In this document: positions 3,013 to 34,869 of the stretch, piece after piece
Layout of the letters: every line of letters starts with the position of its first letter
How positions within the stretch are numbered: the stretch's first letter is position 1
NCBI GenBank assembly: GCA_001824295.1
Contig: MHWY01000005.1
Coordinates: 304 to 61,347 of the forward strand
Length of the DNA stretch: 61,044 bases
Direction: 5' to 3'
From: Candidatus Zambryskibacteria bacterium RIFOXYD1_FULL_40_13
GTDB taxonomy: Bacteria > Patescibacteriota > Minisyncoccia > Phycocordibacterales > DATDWN01
The notes under the pieces: generated by a model
The model's input: only the letters and a program-made list of their open reading frames with translations
Told to the model about the DNA's origin: nothing
Database searches by the model: none
Position numbers and translations under genes: made by a program

Positions 3013-4071
3013 ATGCTGGAGTTGTCTAAATACAACAGGATAAGATTTCATAAGGAAGGAGTTCAGACTAAGTTTATTTTAAAAGCAAGGAAAACTTTAA
3101 ATTTAACTGAGCTGGAGTTATCAAGGAAATTAAAATTGTGTCGACGGACGATTACTGATTGGACAAAAGAAAGAGTTACTATATCTCAAATTGGTGCAAA
3201 TAAAATATCTAGCTTGGCAAAGATATCAATTCCCAAAGGTTACGACATTATTGACTGGAAGGAACACTGGCGAAAGGCGGGGAGGGTGGGGGCTATGACT
3301 AGATTTGTAAGATGTGGAAGGGTTTGTATAGATGAAAAATACCGAAAAATGAAGTGGAATGAATGGTGGAGGAATGTCGGGCAGTACAAAAAGCCACCTC
3401 CAGGTTTTCAGTCTTTGGTAAAGATAAAGATACCACGAAAGAGTAAGTTGCTCGCTGAGTTTATTGGCATTTTGCTTGGAGATGGAAATATATCCCCATA
3501 TTATATTAGTATCACCTTGTCTTCAAAGGAAAAAGAATACATTAAATATATTTGTAAAATTATTGAGAAACTTTTTAGAGTTGTACCAAAGATATTTAAA
3601 CATAAAGAAAAAAAAGCTGTAACTATTGTTGTTAATCGAAAACAACTCGTCGACTTTTGTCAGGAAGTTGGGTTTAAAAAGGGAAACAAGGTGTCCAACC
3701 AGGTTGATATTCCCCAATGGATTAAAAAAAGTAAAATGTATAGTTATGAATGTATCAGGGGCTTGATTGATACTGATGGATGTTTTTTCTTCCATAACTA
3801 TATTGTTAATGGAAAAAAATATTTTTATTTCAAAATAGCTTTTACAAGTGCGTCTATTCCTTTAAGGTTGTCAGTAAAAAAAATTTTGATAAATTCAGGT
3901 TTTGGTGTAAGAATGAGTAAGGCGGGGAAGGGAAAAGGTGGAGATGTTCGTATTGATGGTGGTTTTTATGTGAAAAAATATATAAAAGAAATAGGCTCAC
4001 ACAACAAAAAACACCTAGATAAAATCGAAAAATGGAGGGTTGCTCCGAATGGTAAGGTAGCGGTTTGCTAA
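3013..4071 (+). CDS. LAGLIDADG-family homing endonuclease (free-standing, two-motif)
   Basis: Motifs FIGILLGDGNI and IRGLIDTDGCFFF. ATG at 3013 lies 6 nt after TATAAT (3001-3006); the ORF track begins at TTG 2998. The last 38 nt overlap tRNA-Ser(GCU). Confidence 0.85.
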   Translation: MLELSKYNRIRFHKEGVQTKFILKARKTLNLTELELSRKLKLCRRTITDWTKERVTISQIGANKISSLAKISIPKGYDIIDWKEHWRKAGRVGAMTRFVRCGRVCIDEKYRKMKWNEWWRNVGQYKKPPPGFQSLVKIKIPRKSKLLAEFIGILLGDGNISPYYISITLSSKEKEYIKYICKIIEKLFRVVPKIFKHKEKKAVTIVVNRKQLVDFCQEVGFKKGNKVSNQVDIPQWIKKSKMYSYECIRGLIDTDGCFFFHNYIVNGKKYFYFKIAFTSASIPLRLSVKKILINSGFGVRMSKAGKGKGGDVRIDGGFYVKKYIKEIGSHNKKHLDKIEKWRVAPNGKVAVC

Positions 4072-4120
4072 ACCGTGAGGGTCTTAAAACCCTCTATGGG
4101 TTCGACTCCCATACCCTCCG
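4034..4120 (+). tRNA. tRNA-Ser(GCU)
   Basis: GGAGGGT TG CTCCGAATGGTAAGGT A GCGGT TTGCTAA ACCGT GAGGGTCTTAAAACCCTCTA TGGGT TCGACTC CCATA CCCTCC G. Long variable arm; CCA not encoded. Confidence 0.85.
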
Positions 4121-4158
4121 CAACAAAGACTCAAGAAAGGAGGGTTTTAATTGTGTAT

Positions 4159-4815
4159 TTAATGTGCAAGAGTGAAGGCCACAACTTCGCGAGCGCCAGA
4201 TGAAAGTAGGGTAGAGCGAGCTTCGGACAGAGTGCTTCCTGTGGTTACAACATCATCAATCAAAATTATATATTTACCCTCAACTCCTGGATTAGCCCCA
4301 AACGAGCCAACGAGATTTGTTATTCTCTCTTGTTTTGTCTCACTTCTACTTTGTTTGGGAGTATCTTTTACTTTTTCTAACCATTGTGGGGCGTAGAGTA
4401 ATTTCCTTTCCAAGTCATTTTGAATAATTGATTTTGCGATAAGCTCACTCTGGTTGTAACCTCGTTCTATCCGCCTCTCACTTGTGATAGGTATAGGTAT
4501 CAAAACAAAATTGGCGTCACTATCAAATATTATTGTGTCGGACATATAGACGAGGATTTCCTCAAAGAGTATTTTTCCAAGATATTCAAGGGGCCGAGTG
4601 TTTTCCTTGTACTTCAATTCCCAAACAATCGCTCTGACGCGGTTGTCCTTGTATTGAAAGAGGGGGTGAATCCAGTCAGTCTCAGGGCTTTCACTCGCTC
4701 TCGGCAGGTCATTTATCCTTTCAGGAGTCAATTTTTTTACAATGGTAAAATCTGTTCTGGGTGGCAGAATAAAATCAAAAATTGATACAAAAAACTCTTT
4801 AATACTTTTAGACAT
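4159..4815 (-). CDS. comFC: ComF-family phosphoribosyltransferase-domain protein
   Basis: 218 aa with the PRTase motif YIILIDDVVTTGSTLSEA near the C-terminus. Confidence 0.7.
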   Translation of the reverse strand: MSKSIKEFFVSIFDFILPPRTDFTIVKKLTPERINDLPRASESPETDWIHPLFQYKDNRVRAIVWELKYKENTRPLEYLGKILFEEILVYMSDTIIFDSDANFVLIPIPITSERRIERGYNQSELIAKSIIQNDLERKLLYAPQWLEKVKDTPKQSRSETKQERITNLVGSFGANPGVEGKYIILIDDVVTTGSTLSEARSTLLSSGAREVVAFTLAH

Positions 4816-4857
4816 GCGTACTTTTTATGTTATACTAATTATATACTCATTATTTTT

Positions 4858-5988
4858 ATGGCAAACTTTCTTTCAAACCTTGTTGGAGACTTATTTAGTA
4901 AGAAAAACGGAAGTGTACTAGGGATAGACATAGGTTCTTCCTCTATAAAAATAGTCCAGCTAAGCCGTAAAAACGGCCACGCAGTCCTTGATACATACGG
5001 TGAGCTGGCCCTCGGTCCTTACGCTGGCAAAAGTGTGGGTGAAGCCACAAACCTTCCTCCAGAGAAAATTGTAGAAGCAATAGCAGACATGCTGAAGGAA
5101 AAAGAGGTTAACATTACTACTCGCGCCTGCGGAGTAGCCATTCCTTTCTCATCAAGCTTGATGACACCAATAGAGATGCCAATGGTTTCGCCAAAACAGC
5201 TTGAAACCATGATTCCAGTGGAGGCTAGGAAATATATTCCAGTTCCTATTTCAGAGGTTGCTCTGGATTGGTACATCATTCCCAAAGACAAGAATCCTGA
5301 CTCAGAGCAGTTTGTTGACCAGACTGAAAAAGAAAAGTTGCAGAAGATTGAAGTGCTTATTGTGGCTATTCACAACGATACGCTTATTCGTTACAAAGAC
5401 ATCGTTACAAAGAACGCACTAGAAGCTAGTTTCTTTGAGATTGAAATCTTCAGTACCATGCGTTCGGTATTGGAACAAGAACTTACGCCAGCTCTTATTG
5501 TTGACATGGGAGCAACAAGTACAAAGCTATACATTGTGGAGAGGGGAATATTGCGTTCATCACACATGGTTAACCGGGGCTCACAGAGTATAACCGACGA
5601 GCTTTCAAAGTCTTTGGGCATTTCGCTGACAGACGCCGAGAATATAAAACGCGACAAGGGACTTTTGGGAGAAGTGAAGGGGGTAAAAATTAAAGATGTG
5701 GTTACTCTAACCCTTAATTATATTTTTTCCGAATCAAACAGAGTTGTTTTGGCTTATCAGAAGAAATATAACAAGAATGTAAGCAAGGTGATTTTGGTTG
5801 GTGGTGGTAGTGCCTTGAAGGGGGTAGTAGATGTGGCAAAAAATAATTTTCAAACAGAGGTTGTGGCTGGAGACCCATTTTCAAAAGTAGTTGCTCCTGC
5901 ATTTCTTGAGAAAGTATTACATGAAACTGGTCCGGAATTTGCTGTTGCTATCGGTGTTGCACTCCGCCGTCTCCAAGAGCTGGATTAG
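4858..5988 (+). CDS. pilM: Type IV pilus assembly protein PilM (actin-like ATPase fold)
   Basis: 376 aa with N-terminal LGIDIGSSSIKIVQL. It is the first gene of the pilus cluster. Confidence 0.8.
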   Translation: MANFLSNLVGDLFSKKNGSVLGIDIGSSSIKIVQLSRKNGHAVLDTYGELALGPYAGKSVGEATNLPPEKIVEAIADMLKEKEVNITTRACGVAIPFSSSLMTPIEMPMVSPKQLETMIPVEARKYIPVPISEVALDWYIIPKDKNPDSEQFVDQTEKEKLQKIEVLIVAIHNDTLIRYKDIVTKNALEASFFEIEIFSTMRSVLEQELTPALIVDMGATSTKLYIVERGILRSSHMVNRGSQSITDELSKSLGISLTDAENIKRDKGLLGEVKGVKIKDVVTLTLNYIFSESNRVVLAYQKKYNKNVSKVILVGGGSALKGVVDVAKNNFQTEVVAGDPFSKVVAPAFLEKVLHETGPEFAVAIGVALRRLQELD

Positions 5989-20742: not shown

Positions 20743-20813
20743 AGCGGGGTAGAGAAGCAGTATCTCGGTAGGCTCATAACCTGCAGACCCACGTGCAAAT
20801 CGTGGCCCCGCAA
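20743..20813 (+). tRNA. tRNA(CAU), initiator-like (acceptor AGCGGGG/CCCCGCA with a 1:72 A-A mismatch)
   Basis: AGCGGGG TA GAGA AGCAGTA TCTC G GTAGG CTCATAA CCTGC AGAC CCACG TGCAAAT CGTGG CCCCGCA A. The T-loop is TGC (not TTC) and the D-loop lacks GG. Confidence 0.65.
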
Positions 20814-20848
20814 CAAGAAGAAAAGCTCTCGAAAGAGAGTTTTTCTGT

Positions 20849-21039
20849 TGCGGGGCCAGGATTTGGGAAGGGGTCGGGAAACGGTAGTGAGGAGTGATGT
20901 TATCATTCCGCAAGACCTTGAACGTTTTGTAATCAAAATGTGAAAGGTGTACAGAACCTGTAAGGTTTCCCGTGCACGAAGGCAGTGAGCGAAGTGAGCG
21001 TTGGAAAACCGTCAGTTTCCAAGGAATCCAGGCCCAGCA
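20849..21039 (+). ncRNA. Conserved structured element, copy X1 (unknown class; paralog at 34741-34869)
   Basis: 20/20 and 55/60 identity to X2 in two core blocks (20865-20884, 20966-21025). Closing helix TGCGGGGCCAGGAT/ATCCAGGCCCAGCA is 12/14 paired. An ~80-nt hairpin-rich insert replaces the X2 tetraloop. Confidence 0.4.
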
Positions 21040-21081
21040 GTAGTTTGAGTTTTTGGGTTTTTCTGTTATATTTCCTATATT

Positions 21082-21155
21082 GTCGGCGTAGCTCAGGTAG
21101 TTAGAGCGTGGGACTCATAAGCCCAAGGTCCCCCGTGCAATTCGGGGCGCCGACA
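21082..21155 (+). tRNA. tRNA(CAU), elongator Met or Ile2-type
   Basis: GTCGGCG TA GCTC AGGTAGTTA GAGC G TGGGA CTCATAA GCCCA AGGTC CCCCG TGCAATT CGGGG CGCCGAC A. Confidence 0.8.
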
Positions 21156-21266
21156 CAAAATTAATATTGACTCTTTGAAATTATACGATTTTATGTATAA
21201 TAGGTTGGGTACATCAAAACTATTCCTTAAGAGGAAGAAGGATGTGTTTGAAAGGTACAAAAAGAT

Positions 21267-21550
21267 GCGGTCGTAGCTCAATTTGGTTAGAGCGCGTCCC
21301 TGTAGAATACTGCAGCTTTCTGTCGAAATGGCAGATTGAAACTCTTTGGGATATCGGTGAAGGCTAAATCCTAAGTGCAAACGAAGGACATGCGAATACC
21401 GAGGGAACTCATCTTTTGATGAGAGCACCGTAGAGACTAGATACCAGAGCACCTAACGGGAAACCTATGGTGAAGATATAGTCCACGCCTTTATGAAAAT
21501 ATTGGATAAGTGCACGGACGAGGTTGTGGGTTCAAGTCCCATCGATCGCG
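21267..21550 (+). tRNA. tRNA-Asp(GUC) interrupted by a group I intron in the anticodon loop
   Basis: Exons: GCGGTCG TA GCTC AATTTGGTTA GAGC G CGTCC CTGT | CAC GGACG AGGTT GTGGG TTCAAGT CCCAT CGATCGC G. The spliced loop is CTGTCAC and the discriminator is G. Confidence 0.75.
21304..21512 (+). ncRNA. Group I self-splicing intron (IC3-like, about 209 nt, no ORF)
   Basis: P1 hairpin CTGT|AG-AATA-CTGCAG has a U.G pair at the 5' splice site. R element CCGTAGAGACTAGA and S element GAAGATATAGTCC are present (P7 GACTA/TAGTC). AATCCTAAGTGC and ACCTAACGGGAAACCTATGG resemble the Azoarcus tRNA intron. The intron ends in G. Confidence 0.85.
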
Positions 21551-31666: not shown

Positions 31667-31983
31667 CCCGGTAGTGAAATTTTAGTTCGATTATGTTCTA
31701 TACATACGTATTAAAGAATAAAGATGATAAACTGTATATTGGATATACAAAAGATCTAAAACAAAGATTTGCAGAACATAATCAAGGGTTAAATCTTTCG
31801 ACTAAAGCCAGTCGCCCGTGGAAGATTATTTATTATGAGTGCTGTCTAGATATTAATGATGCAAAGCGAAGAGAGGGGTATTTTAAAACCAGTCAAGGCC
31901 GCAGGTTACTACGACGGAGACTGAAGGAGTATTTTTATAAAATAAGGTCGAAAGATTTAACAAACTAAAATTCTACTACCGGG
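31667..31983 (+). mobile_element. 317-bp element: GIY-YIG ORF between 19-bp terminal inverted repeats, flanked by an ATGA duplication
   Basis: Left TIR CCCGGTAGTGAAATTTTAG (31667-31685). Right TIR CTAAAATTCTACTACCGGG (31965-31983). ATGA at 31663-31666 and 31984-31987. The same terminus family recurs at 32.7, 45.4 and 54.2 kb. Confidence 0.6.
31693..31968 (+). CDS. GIY-YIG (URI-domain) nuclease family protein, 91 aa
   Basis: FYTYVL...LYIGYT...RFAEHN...REGYFK, the classic short GIY-YIG pattern. Confidence 0.85.
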   Translation: MFYTYVLKNKDDKLYIGYTKDLKQRFAEHNQGLNLSTKASRPWKIIYYECCLDINDAKRREGYFKTSQGRRLLRRRLKEYFYKIRSKDLTN

Positions 31984-34187: not shown

Positions 34188-34248
34188 TGCGAGATCACCC
34201 GTCTCGACTTGGCAAGCTCGCGAGCCGAGGTGGATCTAATGGTAGGAT
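34188..34248 (+). pseudogene. 5' portion (acceptor strand to D-arm) of a split tRNA-Gln-like gene, carrying a 37-nt insert
   Basis: TGCGAGA TC a[CCCGTCTCGACTTGGCAAGCTCGCGAGCCGAGGTGGA]TCTAATGGTAGGAT. TGCGAGA is the exact complement of TCTCGCA at 34703-34709. Confidence 0.5.
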
Positions 34249-34250
34249 AT

Positions 34251-34502
34251 ATGAGTTGTCACGTTTATGTATTAAAAAGCAATAGACATGATAAATCTTA
34301 TGTTGGGTCAACAAATGATCTTGAAAGAAGATTATCAGAACACAATAACGGCAAATCAGCTTATACTTCAAAATATAAACCATGGAGTATAATTTATACT
34401 GAAGAGTTTAGTGTACTAAAGGAAGCTCGGGAAAGAGAGAGGTATTTAAAGGGTCGTAGCGGGAGAAGGTTTTTGAAAAAGATTTTTGATAATAAAAAAT
34501 GA
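34251..34502 (+). CDS. GIY-YIG (URI-domain) nuclease family protein, 83 aa
   Basis: HVYVL...SYVGST...RLSEHN...RERYLK. It is a paralog of the ORF at 31693-31968. The start choice (34251) is uncertain. Confidence 0.8.
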   Translation: MSCHVYVLKSNRHDKSYVGSTNDLERRLSEHNNGKSAYTSKYKPWSIIYTEEFSVLKEARERERYLKGRSGRRFLKKIFDNKK

Positions 34503-34516
34503 CTTCTGCACAAAGC

Positions 34517-34587
34517 TGGGAGATCGTCTAATGGTAGGACGCATCCCTCTGAAGGATGCTATCTTGGTTCGAGTCCAAGTCTCCCAG
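34517..34587 (+). tRNA. tRNA-Gln(CUG)
   Basis: TGGGAGA TC GTCT AATGGTA GGAC G CATCC CTCTGAA GGATG CTAT CTTGG TTCGAGT CCAAG TCTCCCA G. U1-A72 is typical of tRNA-Gln. Confidence 0.85.
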
Positions 34588-34609
34588 CTTTGTGCAGAAG
34601 TCTGAATAA

Positions 34610-34710
34610 TCGTCTAATGGCCCGTCTCGACTTGGCAAGCTCGCGAGCCGAGGCGGATAGGACACATCCCTCTGGAGGATGTTATCTTGGTTCGAGTCCA
34701 AGTCTCGCAG
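34610..34710 (+). pseudogene. tRNA-Gln-like body (positions 8-73) lacking its 5' acceptor strand, with a 37-nt insert in the D-loop
   Basis: TC GTCT AATGG[CCCGTCTCGACTTGGCAAGCTCGCGAGCCGAGGCGGA]TA GGAC A CATCC CTCTGGA GGATG TTAT CTTGG TTCGAGT CCAAG TCTCGCA G. Confidence 0.5.
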
Positions 34711-34740
34711 CTAGGAGTTTTTTGTTAAAAAAACGACGCC

Positions 34741-34869
34741 GCAAGAGACTTGGACTCGAACCAGGGAAGGGGTCGGGAAACGGGAGTTTCCCGTGTAGGA
34801 AGGCAGTGAGCGAAGCGAACGTTGGAAAACCGTCGGTTTCCAAGGAGTGAGAGATCCAAGTCTCCCAGC
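34741..34869 (+). ncRNA. Conserved structured element, copy X2 (unknown class; paralog at 20849-21039)
   Basis: Core blocks at 34764-34783 and 34787-34846 match X1. Hairpins CGGGAAAC-GGGA-GTTTCCCG and TTGGAAAACC-GTC-GGTTTCCAA. Closing helix GAGACTTGGA/TCCAAGTCTC. Confidence 0.4.

Follow-up and report, generated by a model that had tools for sequence, protein, structure and literature searches.

Short structured elements with a gene-end-matching variable helix form a family in Patescibacteria

What is the structured sequence that follows a tRNA-Met gene in Candidatus Zambryskibacteria bacterium RIFOXYD1_FULL_40_13, and why does it carry the 3′ end of that tRNA once in antisense and once more as a diverged direct copy? 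The gene lies in a stretch of 61,044 nucleotides (nt) of contig MHWY01000005.1 (assembly GCA_001824295.1, positions 304 to 61,347 of the forward strand), hereafter the window, whose coordinates are used throughout unless a locus is named. An initial annotation, made from the letters alone, had matched it to a second sequence in the window and had left two readings for the element, namely an undescribed tRNA-linked noncoding RNA or a miniature tRNA-targeting mobile element. The two copies in the window are designated X1 (after tRNA-Met) and X2 (after tRNA-Gln), and other copies and loci are numbered L014 to L042. The element is previously undescribed, and we consider it probable on balance that X1 and X2 are copies of a family of miniature, protein-less, nonautonomous integrative elements of Patescibacteria that move via a circular or terminally redundant intermediate.

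The two copies in the window and their relatives

The coordinates, match counts, and 12/14 pairing given in the initial annotation were all reproduced on recomputation. The end of the tRNA-Met gene, AAATCGTGGCCCCGCAACA (20797-20815), agrees with the reverse complement of 20846-20864 at 18 of 19 positions. The 20-mer GGGAAGGGGTCGGGAAACGG is shared without mismatch (20/20) by 20865-20884 and 34764-34783. The stretch 21026-21039 pairs with 20849-20862 at 12 of 14 positions, and in the extended helix, G-U pairs included, 18 of 20 positions pair. The sequence of this closing helix differs between X1 and X2 while the pairing is kept in both, as had been claimed. The remaining features are collected in Table 1.

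The core 20-mer and a core 17-mer each occur exactly twice in the window, where shuffled sequences lead one to expect 0.00 and 0.08 occurrences, and no 19-nt inverted repeat with one mismatch or fewer was found in 5 × 12 kb of shuffled sequence. The repeats of X1 and X2 are not due to chance. Folding of X1 gives a z score of −4.4, and scans for promoters and terminators around X1 and X2 stayed at background level. At the tip of its first hairpin X1 carries an insert, put at about 80 nt initially and found to be 81 nt long (20885-20965), that folds into three small hairpins in place of the GGGA loop of X2. No relative of this insert was found within the window or among the other copies, and a nested insertion into a permissive tip would be one explanation.

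Table 1. Features of X1 and X2 in the window
Feature	Position	Strand	Basis or remark
Host gene tRNA-Met(CAT), 3′ end copied by X1	20743..20814	+	ARAGORN; Rfam tRNA 48.8 bits
X1 segment I, first direct repeat (DR-A): end of T-loop, T-stem 3′ strand, acceptor 3′ strand, discriminator	20797..20815	+	
X1 spacer, terminator-type hairpin AGAAAAGCTCTC-GAAA-GAGAGTTTTTCT	20819..20846	+	read from sequence
11-bp direct repeat GTTTTTCTGTT, left copy, boundary of extra DNA relative to empty site	20839..20849	+	
X1 A′, antisense copy of tRNA 3′ end, 5′ strand of variable helix P1	20846..20864	+	
X1 core 5′ part: purine-rich joiner GGGAAGGGGUC and P-a 5′ strand (20875-20882)	20865..20884	+	
X1-specific 81-nt insert at P-a tip	20885..20965	+	GNRA-type tetraloop there in other copies
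X1 core 3′ part: P-a 3′ strand 20965-20972, joiner UGCACGAAGGCA, P-c 20985-20999 (tandem G·A), P-b 21001-21022, GGA	20966..21025	+	55/60 identical to X2 34787-34846
X1 second direct repeat (DR-B) or mimic, second diverged tRNA 3′-end copy, 3′ strand of P1	21026..21042	+	
X1 tail: degenerate trailer, then right copy of GTTTTTCTGTT (21057-21067)	21043..21067	+	
X2 DR-A: 3′ end of degenerate tRNA-Gln copy	34688..34712	+	Rfam tRNA 34653-34709, 24.9 bits (weak); 19-nt inverted match
X2 A′, antisense of tRNA-Gln T-arm and acceptor 3′ strand	34744..34763	+	
X2 canonical 84-nt core (P-a with GGGA loop, P-c, P-b)	34764..34847	+	covariance model 105.7 bits
X2 DR-B, tRNA-Gln 3′-end mimic	34850..34868	+	15-nt direct repeat; closing helix

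The two copies belong to a larger family. A pattern scan of species-representative genomes gave a third copy in a Candidatus Kaiserbacteria genome, and a scan of metagenomes gave nine more loci, one of which is that Kaiserbacteria locus again. Five of the six genome matches and two of the 11 metagenome matches to the 17-mer were judged to be chance, the other core blocks being absent. A covariance model was then built from eight copies. It scores X1 at 63.5 bits (E = 2e-13), with an alignment only from 20941 onward, and finds no copy in the window beyond X1 and X2. Because the element is sometimes miscalled as a small open reading frame (ORF), a protein collection was also queried with five concatenated core reading frames. 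This query returned 12 spurious proteins, and the six that were traced to DNA all contain the core (80-106 bits). In all, 17 distinct copies were examined at the DNA level, with covariance-model scores of 53-107 bits. Every named host belongs to the Patescibacteria or candidate phyla radiation (CPR): the carrier of the third copy is assigned to Kaiserbacteria and the relatives to Kaiserbacteria, Paceibacterota, and Parcubacteria.

Viral contigs held seven matches to the 17-mer, which were rejected as chance since no other core blocks accompany them. Four further patterns in viral contigs, and blastn against phage and plasmid collections, gave no match. A scan of the window against Rfam 15 at gathering scores reported only 7 tRNAs. 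No Rfam family matches the core of X1 or X2 to E = 10, the lack of a known family being a point on which the initial reading had depended; over X1 and X2 the relaxed search gave only tRNA, the neighboring group I intron, and spurious microRNA-hairpin matches on the palindrome of tRNA end and antisense copy.

The spurious ORF P0241 (130 aa) contains two different antisense core frames about 60 residues apart, and therefore two X copies stand in tandem within about 400 nt in some metagenome.

A conserved core and a variable closing helix

The core of about 86 nt consists of three hairpins, P-a, P-c, and P-b, around a purine-rich junction, as seen in an alignment of 16 copies. P-a has the form CGGGAAAC-loop-GUUUCCCG, with GGGA or GGAA as the loop in most copies; the hairpin is lengthened in L014 and bears the 81-nt insert in X1. 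P-b has the form UUGGAAA(A)CC-loop-GGUUUCCAA and shows UA-to-CG double changes at the first two pairs. P-c, GUGAGC-GAA-GCGAAC with tandem G·A pairs, was recognized from variant copies: L042 has GGUCGC-UUUA-GCGAUC, with Watson-Crick pairs instead of G·A, L040 a shortened GGC-GAA-GCC, L041 a CUUG loop, and L017 a larger loop. The joiners GGGAAGGGGUC, UGGAGGAAGGCA, and GGAG are almost invariant, and the cores are 85-95% identical between copies.

The fold is supported by the alignment itself. Paired cells amount to 90.6%, against 25-59% with slid partners, and two-sided changes occur in 16 cells. Covarying pairs are present in each of P-a, P-b, and P-c. The covariation score was reached by 0 of 500 shuffles (16-copy alignment; an eight-sequence version was also run). 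A lack of homologs or covariation had been named initially as grounds for giving up the element; 17 copies and covariation above all 500 shuffles were found. About 15 cells hold G-U or U-G pairs, which would be A-C mismatches on the opposite strand, and since these pairs are strand-specific, the folded strand is the + strand of the window. The GNRA-type loops favor RNA over single-stranded DNA.

The surroundings of the core follow a common order. On the core sense strand of nearly every copy come the host gene, a first copy of the gene end (segment I and the remainder), a spacer, A′, the core, a second copy of the gene end, and the downstream sequence, where A′ is antisense to a 10-20-nt part of I. 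In X1, X2, L014-L021, L024, and L039-L042 the gene end is directly repeated on the two sides, and the antisense copy precedes the core. These flanking repeats vary in length from 13 to 55 bp, and the elements measure 100-280 bp, or about 600 bp with cargo. A′ and the second gene-end copy form the helix P1, which closes the junction with predicted energies of −19 to −27 kcal/mol in most copies and differs in sequence in every copy. In tRNA copies, I begins at the boundary between T-loop and T-stem, A′ ends in GAAUCGAAC, the complement of the T-loop, and behind the core stands a conserved GAGUGAGAUA that extends the helix via tandem G·A pairs.

The antisense arm had been proposed to pair alternatively with the tRNA 3′ end or with its mimic. 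The predicted duplex energies agree with this proposal. In a read-through transcript, A′ would pair more strongly with the first gene-end copy than with the second, the energies for tRNA end and mimic being −38.4 and −25.7 kcal/mol in X1 and −37.5 and −23.1 kcal/mol in X2.

The same parts occur in three circularly permuted arrangements. The standard one is A′ - core - I. In the copies within methyltransferase genes it is I - 3-nt loop - A′ - core, all within the inserted 99-105 nt. In L018, P-a is opened and bears the gene-end copy, and P1 is replaced by GUCU. The three arrangements thus correspond to one circle [I - rest - A′ - core] opened at different points. They provide the chief argument, an indirect one, that the intermediate is circular or terminally redundant.

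Target genes and evidence for mobility

The copies stand at the ends of various genes. The tRNA targets are Met (X1, L016), Gln (X2, L042), Arg (L015, L039), Glu (L019, L041, and degenerate in L040), and Phe (L020); intact tRNAs next to copies were called by ARAGORN, for which the tRNA-Glu of L040 is too degenerate. Protein genes are hit at the 3′ end on the same strand in L014 and L018 (a SET-domain gene), and at the 5′ end on the opposite strand in L017 (a MurD-like ligase) and L021 (RNase HI), with both ORFs intact. Two orthologous S-adenosylmethionine (SAM)-methyltransferase genes, in L037 and L038, contain the element within their ORF, and the frame is kept in both. Alignment with uninterrupted homologues shows an excess of 33 and 35 residues in these proteins, placed in a loop and precisely between ...SFG and GMGP.... 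The arm strands GCACGCCGGC-UCU-GCCGGCGUGC are both within the insertion and differ by 6 nt between the two genes; the arm has no other match in the locus, and the flanking duplication is at most GGG. Splicing of these copies as introns is not supported, as both orthologues are in frame and their arms differ. The element is therefore not tRNA-specific. Of the mobile element suggested initially, the mobility finds support in 17 unrelated contexts and an empty site in a relative, whereas "tRNA-targeting" is too narrow in view of the protein-gene ends and the ORF interior.

The empty site was found in L031/L032, from a Zambryskibacteria-type relative, which shares with the window the gene order ligA, gatC, gatA, a 229-aa gene, tRNA-Met, tRNA-Met, and tRNA-Asp. 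No element is present there, and the two tRNA-Met genes are separated by 65 nt. According to the locus alignment, the tRNA-Met at 20743-20814 is the ortholog of tRNA-Met1 in L031, and DR-A, the first copy of the repeated gene end, is near-identical to the same stretch of that tRNA. The window is collinear with L031 up to the T-run of the terminator and again from TTATATTTCC, and the extra DNA is bracketed by GTTTTTCTGTT. Beyond 21067, where collinearity resumes, lies the promoter of the next tRNA-Met (21082-21156). In the far more distant L016, whose neighboring proteins are 56% and 35% identical, the element is present behind the orthologous tRNA-Met.

The two gene-end copies at one locus can be different alleles. 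In L018 both encode GCKCGALKHRS* and show, as read from the sequence, 7 synonymous and 0 nonsynonymous differences, with perfect identity in blocks of 17 and 8 nt on either side. The corresponding reading for L014 gives 4 synonymous and 0 nonsynonymous differences. As their two copies, L021 and L017 each possess complete N-termini that are distinct from one another. These observations indicate that one copy comes from a diverged allele and travelled with the element. A simple target-site duplication was rejected because of the synonymous-only differences in L018 and L014. An origin of A′ by a snap-back palindrome at the terminator fits X1, but the protein-gene copies have only 10-11-nt arms around nonpalindromic spacers. 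The element can also carry additional DNA and enter repeatedly: L042 contains a cargo of about 400 nt between gene end and A′, including an ORF of about 100 codons without a Pfam match, and behind the present copy of L041 stands the tail of an older one.

A second kind of element, designated Y, shows how the junction can vary. Y elements (L025 3610-3910, L027 3686-3986, and L029/L030 3543-3983; + coordinates, read on the minus strand) sit behind the orthologous tRNA-Met, which is split there by a group I intron (RF00028, 75 bits in L025). In them, the gene end is followed by a hairpin, an antisense copy that a 23-nt hairpin interrupts, a core of about 105 nt, and the second gene end. The Y core differs from that of X, and only a GGGGUCG-plus-hairpin module is common to both. 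The spacer hairpin of X1 is homologous to the terminator of L030, AAAAAACTCTC-ATAC-GAGAGTTTTTT-CTGTTATAT. In L030 this terminator follows the second gene-end copy, while its homologue in the window follows the first, with repetition of the T-run alone. Resident and incoming DNA therefore meet at different places within the common segment, as is expected if one crossover joins the gene end in the chromosome to the homologous copy that the element carries. The Y element of L025 is truncated, and an extra tandem Y copy in L029 spans a run of N and may be an assembly artifact.

Taken in this way, a transient circle or terminally redundant molecule [gene-end copy - spacer/cargo - A′ - core] would integrate by one crossover within the gene-end homology, in the manner proposed by Campbell. 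The host gene body would then be followed by its gene end, the spacer, A′, the core, the second gene end, and the downstream sequence, in this order. Such an insertion would be tolerated because the host gene would always keep a complete end. In X1 the crossover may have occurred at the right edge of the homology, in the T-run of the terminator that forms the 11-bp repeat, so that the tRNA, the terminator, and the first T-run would be native. The incoming DNA would then consist of A′, the core with its private 81-nt insert, the mimic, and a degenerate trailer of 18 nt. Transcription of the core is most likely, and its role may be that of a cis element or cofactor for a recombinase or reverse transcriptase whose gene lies elsewhere, or the core may be itself catalytic.

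Several observations weigh against an integrative element of this kind. No recombinase, reverse transcriptase, or other shared protein was found near the copies in the gene maps of 10 copies or, by inspection, among the ORFs of the window; an all-against-all BLAST of the ORFs of ten loci for a shared partner protein gave only synteny between orthologous loci. With 8-32 bp, the blocks of homology are short for recombination of the RecA type. All tRNA copies have their break at the T-loop/T-stem boundary, which looks like the mark of a site-specific process and not of one driven by homology. No gene-end duplication accompanies the methyltransferase copies, and a second, homology-independent route of insertion is therefore needed. 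The model leaves unaccounted for how a new gene-end copy and the matching antisense segment are acquired together. The spacers are unalignable between copies despite the conserved cores, and this combination fits long residence under selection equally as well as recent movement. The single empty site found is in a relative with only about 60% protein identity.

Competing explanations, known systems, and neighboring features

The core and its helix, matched to the target, may together act as a programmable RNA that directs insertion, either as guide or cofactor of a trans-encoded enzyme so far not connected with RNA guidance, or as a ribozyme itself. We regard this reading as doubtful. If it were true, the A′/I helix would choose the insertion site, the element would retarget by exchanging the helix, and X and Y would be two families of a wider class of RNA-guided, gene-end-restoring elements in CPR bacteria. 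A comparable known case is the bridge RNA of the IS110 family, a structured noncoding RNA with a reprogrammable target-complementary segment beside a conserved scaffold (PMC11208160, PMC11208158). X resembles it in that the target-matching segment differs between copies and the scaffold is conserved. No DEDD/serine recombinase gene is seen around the 10 mapped copies or among the inspected ORFs of the window, and X has three hairpins and one continuous target-matching helix instead of two internal loops bearing split guides to target and donor. The target-matching segment of X is moreover paired with its own complement inside the RNA, and insertion of IS110 elements occurs without the target duplication of 14-55 bp seen in X.

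A short interspersed nuclear element (SINE)-like retroelement appears to us still more doubtful. Here a terminally redundant RNA (I...A′-core-I) would use a reverse transcriptase in trans: the 3′ end of the RNA would anneal to the target gene end and be copied, and the end of the cDNA would anneal to the other strand, so that the duplicated architecture would arise without any DNA circle. The RNA-like character of the core (strand-specific G-U pairs, GNRA loops, covariation) suits such a route, as does the position of copies downstream of tRNA promoters, from which read-through would cotranscribe them, and the carried gene-end allele is explicable as a 3′ transduction. CPR genomes are rich in reverse transcriptases. 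However, none is encoded near any copy in the locus gene maps, a strong terminator stands between tRNA and A′ in most tRNA copies, and copies beside opposite-strand genes would require a promoter of their own. The permuted forms (L018 and the methyltransferase copies) are also less natural for a linear RNA. Retrons and diversity-generating retroelements likewise do not fit, since the gene maps show no adjacent reverse transcriptase and the repeat mismatches are not adenine-specific.

The core could in principle belong to a new class of small ribozymes that cleave or ligate themselves and turn transcripts of the element into circles, as in retrozymes and viroid-like RNAs. This statement concerns the core, and the ribozyme reading is therefore compatible with either model of a mobile element. 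Its size and its multihelix junction with highly conserved joining strands, the tolerance of its arms for large inserts (81 nt in X1, longer in L014), and the natural circular permutation in L018 point in this direction; hammerhead and twister ribozymes show natural circular permutation. We nevertheless hold it to be improbable, because the joiners are almost purely purine without the usual pseudoknot partners, no cleavage-site signature can be named, and Rfam gives no ribozyme match to E = 10, the hammerhead, twister, twister-sister, pistol, hatchet, hairpin, and hepatitis delta virus (HDV)-like classes included.

A cis-regulatory or processing RNA that serves the host has a smaller chance than these. 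In such an RNA, A′ would switch between the gene-end transcript and the mimic and thereby control maturation or stability of the tRNA or mRNA 3′ end, with the core as a sensor or as a platform for protein binding. The two helices described above, mutually exclusive by prediction (−38/−26 kcal/mol in X1 and −37.5/−23 in X2), would allow such a switch. Where the T-loop of the adjoining tRNA differs between lineages, A′ differs with it (window TGCAAAT, L016 TTCGATT), and the core is strongly conserved across hosts whose proteins are only 35-56% identical. As a general function, a tRNA-linked RNA acting in tRNA maturation is not supported, since in L017 and L021 the neighboring gene is on the other strand and A′ has the sense of the mRNA, with which it cannot pair. 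In L037 and L038 the element lies within an ORF with both arm strands inside the insertion, the L031 site is empty next to the same two tRNAs, the targets have no functional theme, and the duplicated gene ends are foreign alleles. A riboswitch or leader is disfavored in the same way, as the copies have no constant position, strand, or coherent gene set.

The least probable reading, already contradicted by the family data, is an inert relic, either a decaying local duplication of the tRNA region or the remnant of a larger prophage-like insert deleted between its attachment sites: though the mimic is a degenerate, diverged second copy of the tRNA end, as an initial doubt about a decaying duplication had foreseen, and remnants do exist (the older tail in L041, the truncated Y of L025), an 86-nt core with compensatory changes is kept in 17 contexts, it always abuts A′ and the second gene end as random deletion remnants would not, and phage, plasmid, and viral collections hold no match.

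The integrative element that we favor can be compared with integrase-type elements at the ends of tRNA or protein genes, such as temperate phages, genomic islands, and integrative conjugative elements, which use tyrosine integrases. As in these, the gene end is found as a direct repeat at both junctions, the element supplies a replacement end, and the gene is reconstituted whole. The identity block of the tRNA copies, from the T-loop/T-stem boundary to the 3′ end, corresponds to the classic "T-loop" class of sites, cargo is possible (L042), and insertion can be repeated at one tRNA (L041, X2). X differs in its size, smaller by one to two orders of magnitude, and in the lack of an integrase or recombinase gene within its 100-280 bp. 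Directly beside its attachment site lies a conserved folded core, and the attachment segment is present in antisense as well. Its crossover point is not fixed, and it can sit inside an ORF without duplication.

Other short repeats offer a different comparison. Rickettsia palindromic elements (RPEs) were reportedly first described in 2000. They insert in frame into protein genes and also occur in RNA genes (PMC10969869). Like RPEs and MITEs (miniature transposable elements with inverted repeats), X is short, protein-less, highly structured, and multicopy in the reduced genomes of host-dependent bacteria, where it is found between genes, next to RNA genes, and in frame inside read-through ORFs (L037, L038). 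In contrast to them, X has no terminal inverted repeats shared across the family: GGGAAGGGG... and ...TTTCCAAGGA, the two ends of the core, do not form an inverted repeat, and the A′/I pair differs per copy and matches the local gene. Its gene-end duplications are long, at 14-55 bp, and represent diverged alleles, not short target-site duplications, and no short duplication of fixed length was found, X1 having a perfect 11-bp repeat. The conserved part of X is a nonpalindromic junction of three hairpins.

Folded single-stranded attachment sites are known from integron attC and from the forked hairpin of CTX phage, in which the recombinases IntI and XerCD recognize fixed sequences. As there, inverted attachment copies about 90 nt apart in X fold into a stem that equals the double-stranded chromosomal site, and only one strand folds correctly. 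In those sites, however, the stem is conserved and the middle free, whereas in X the stem varies and the middle is conserved, and the GNRA-type loops of X point to RNA rather than DNA. Group IIC introns home just after intrinsic terminators. In X1 and several tRNA copies the incoming DNA likewise directly follows a terminator-type hairpin and T-run, but the 86-nt core is far too small for such an intron and has no domain V or VI, and copies at gene 5′ ends and inside ORFs have no terminator. As for group I introns, RF00028 never matches the X core, and the tRNA-Met at 20743-20814 is complete without splicing. Because X has neither of the two defining bridge-RNA features examined, and integrase, shared terminal repeats, and short target duplications are lacking, it is filed as a variant of small nonautonomous integrative repeats.

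If this description holds, CPR elements join gene-end restoration of the phage type with a conserved folded RNA and a single target-matching variable helix. What reads that helix then becomes the question; it may be a new route of RNA-guided recombination or retroinsertion, which would be of practical interest. On a more modest reading, the family accounts for duplicated tRNA ends, pseudo-tRNAs, and spurious small ORFs in CPR annotations and for structured repeats inserted in frame into CPR proteins, and the covariance model can be used to mask or trace such repeats.

Further features were observed near the copies. In L021, the NCBI annotation contains a 61-aa "protein" in which the old, displaced N-terminus continues into antisense sequence of the core. 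The X copy of L040 adjoins a defense operon (3353-4878) of the cyclic oligonucleotide-based antiphage signaling system (CBASS) type, with a Cap15-like effector and a CD-NTase by Pfam. Behind the SET-domain orthologue in L020 (12397-12533) lies a different GC-rich, hairpin-forming sequence that is neither an X copy nor an empty site, and the pair L018/L020 is therefore uninformative as an empty-site comparison. Homologues of RNase HI were considered as a close empty site for L021, but the nearest is 69% identical and unusable.

The surroundings of X2 should also be described. ARAGORN and Rfam call the second tRNA-Met (21082-21156) and the intact tRNA-Gln (34517-34588), and TCCAAGTCTCCCAGC in DR-B of X2 is identical to this tRNA-Gln. 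The degenerate second tRNA-Gln copy (34600-34712) has no matching 5′ acceptor strand and contains a 35-nt hairpin-forming insert in the D-loop. The intact tRNA-Gln is flanked by a perfect 16-bp inverted repeat, GACTTCTGCACAAAGC / GCTTTGTGCAGAAGTC (34501-34604), that lengthens its acceptor stem, and a GIY-YIG nuclease gene (34239-34502) lies directly upstream. This gene and the repeat-flanked tRNA-Gln look like another inserted unit. It has a small paralog at 31693-31968 (Pfam PF01541; E = 7e-17 for 31693-31968 and 5e-18 for 34239-34502), and a homologue is present in L020 at 985-1227; the linkage of such genes to X copies is not consistent.

The third tRNA of the cluster behind X1 (21268-21550), tRNA-Asp by synteny with L031, has its anticodon loop interrupted by a group I intron, which matches Rfam RF00028 at 21294-21505 with 37 bits (gathering score 50); ARAGORN makes no call for this tRNA. 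Elsewhere in the window, at 2872-2961, a tRNA-Ser with the unusual anticodon ACT is called by ARAGORN and scores 54.7 bits with the Rfam tRNA model.

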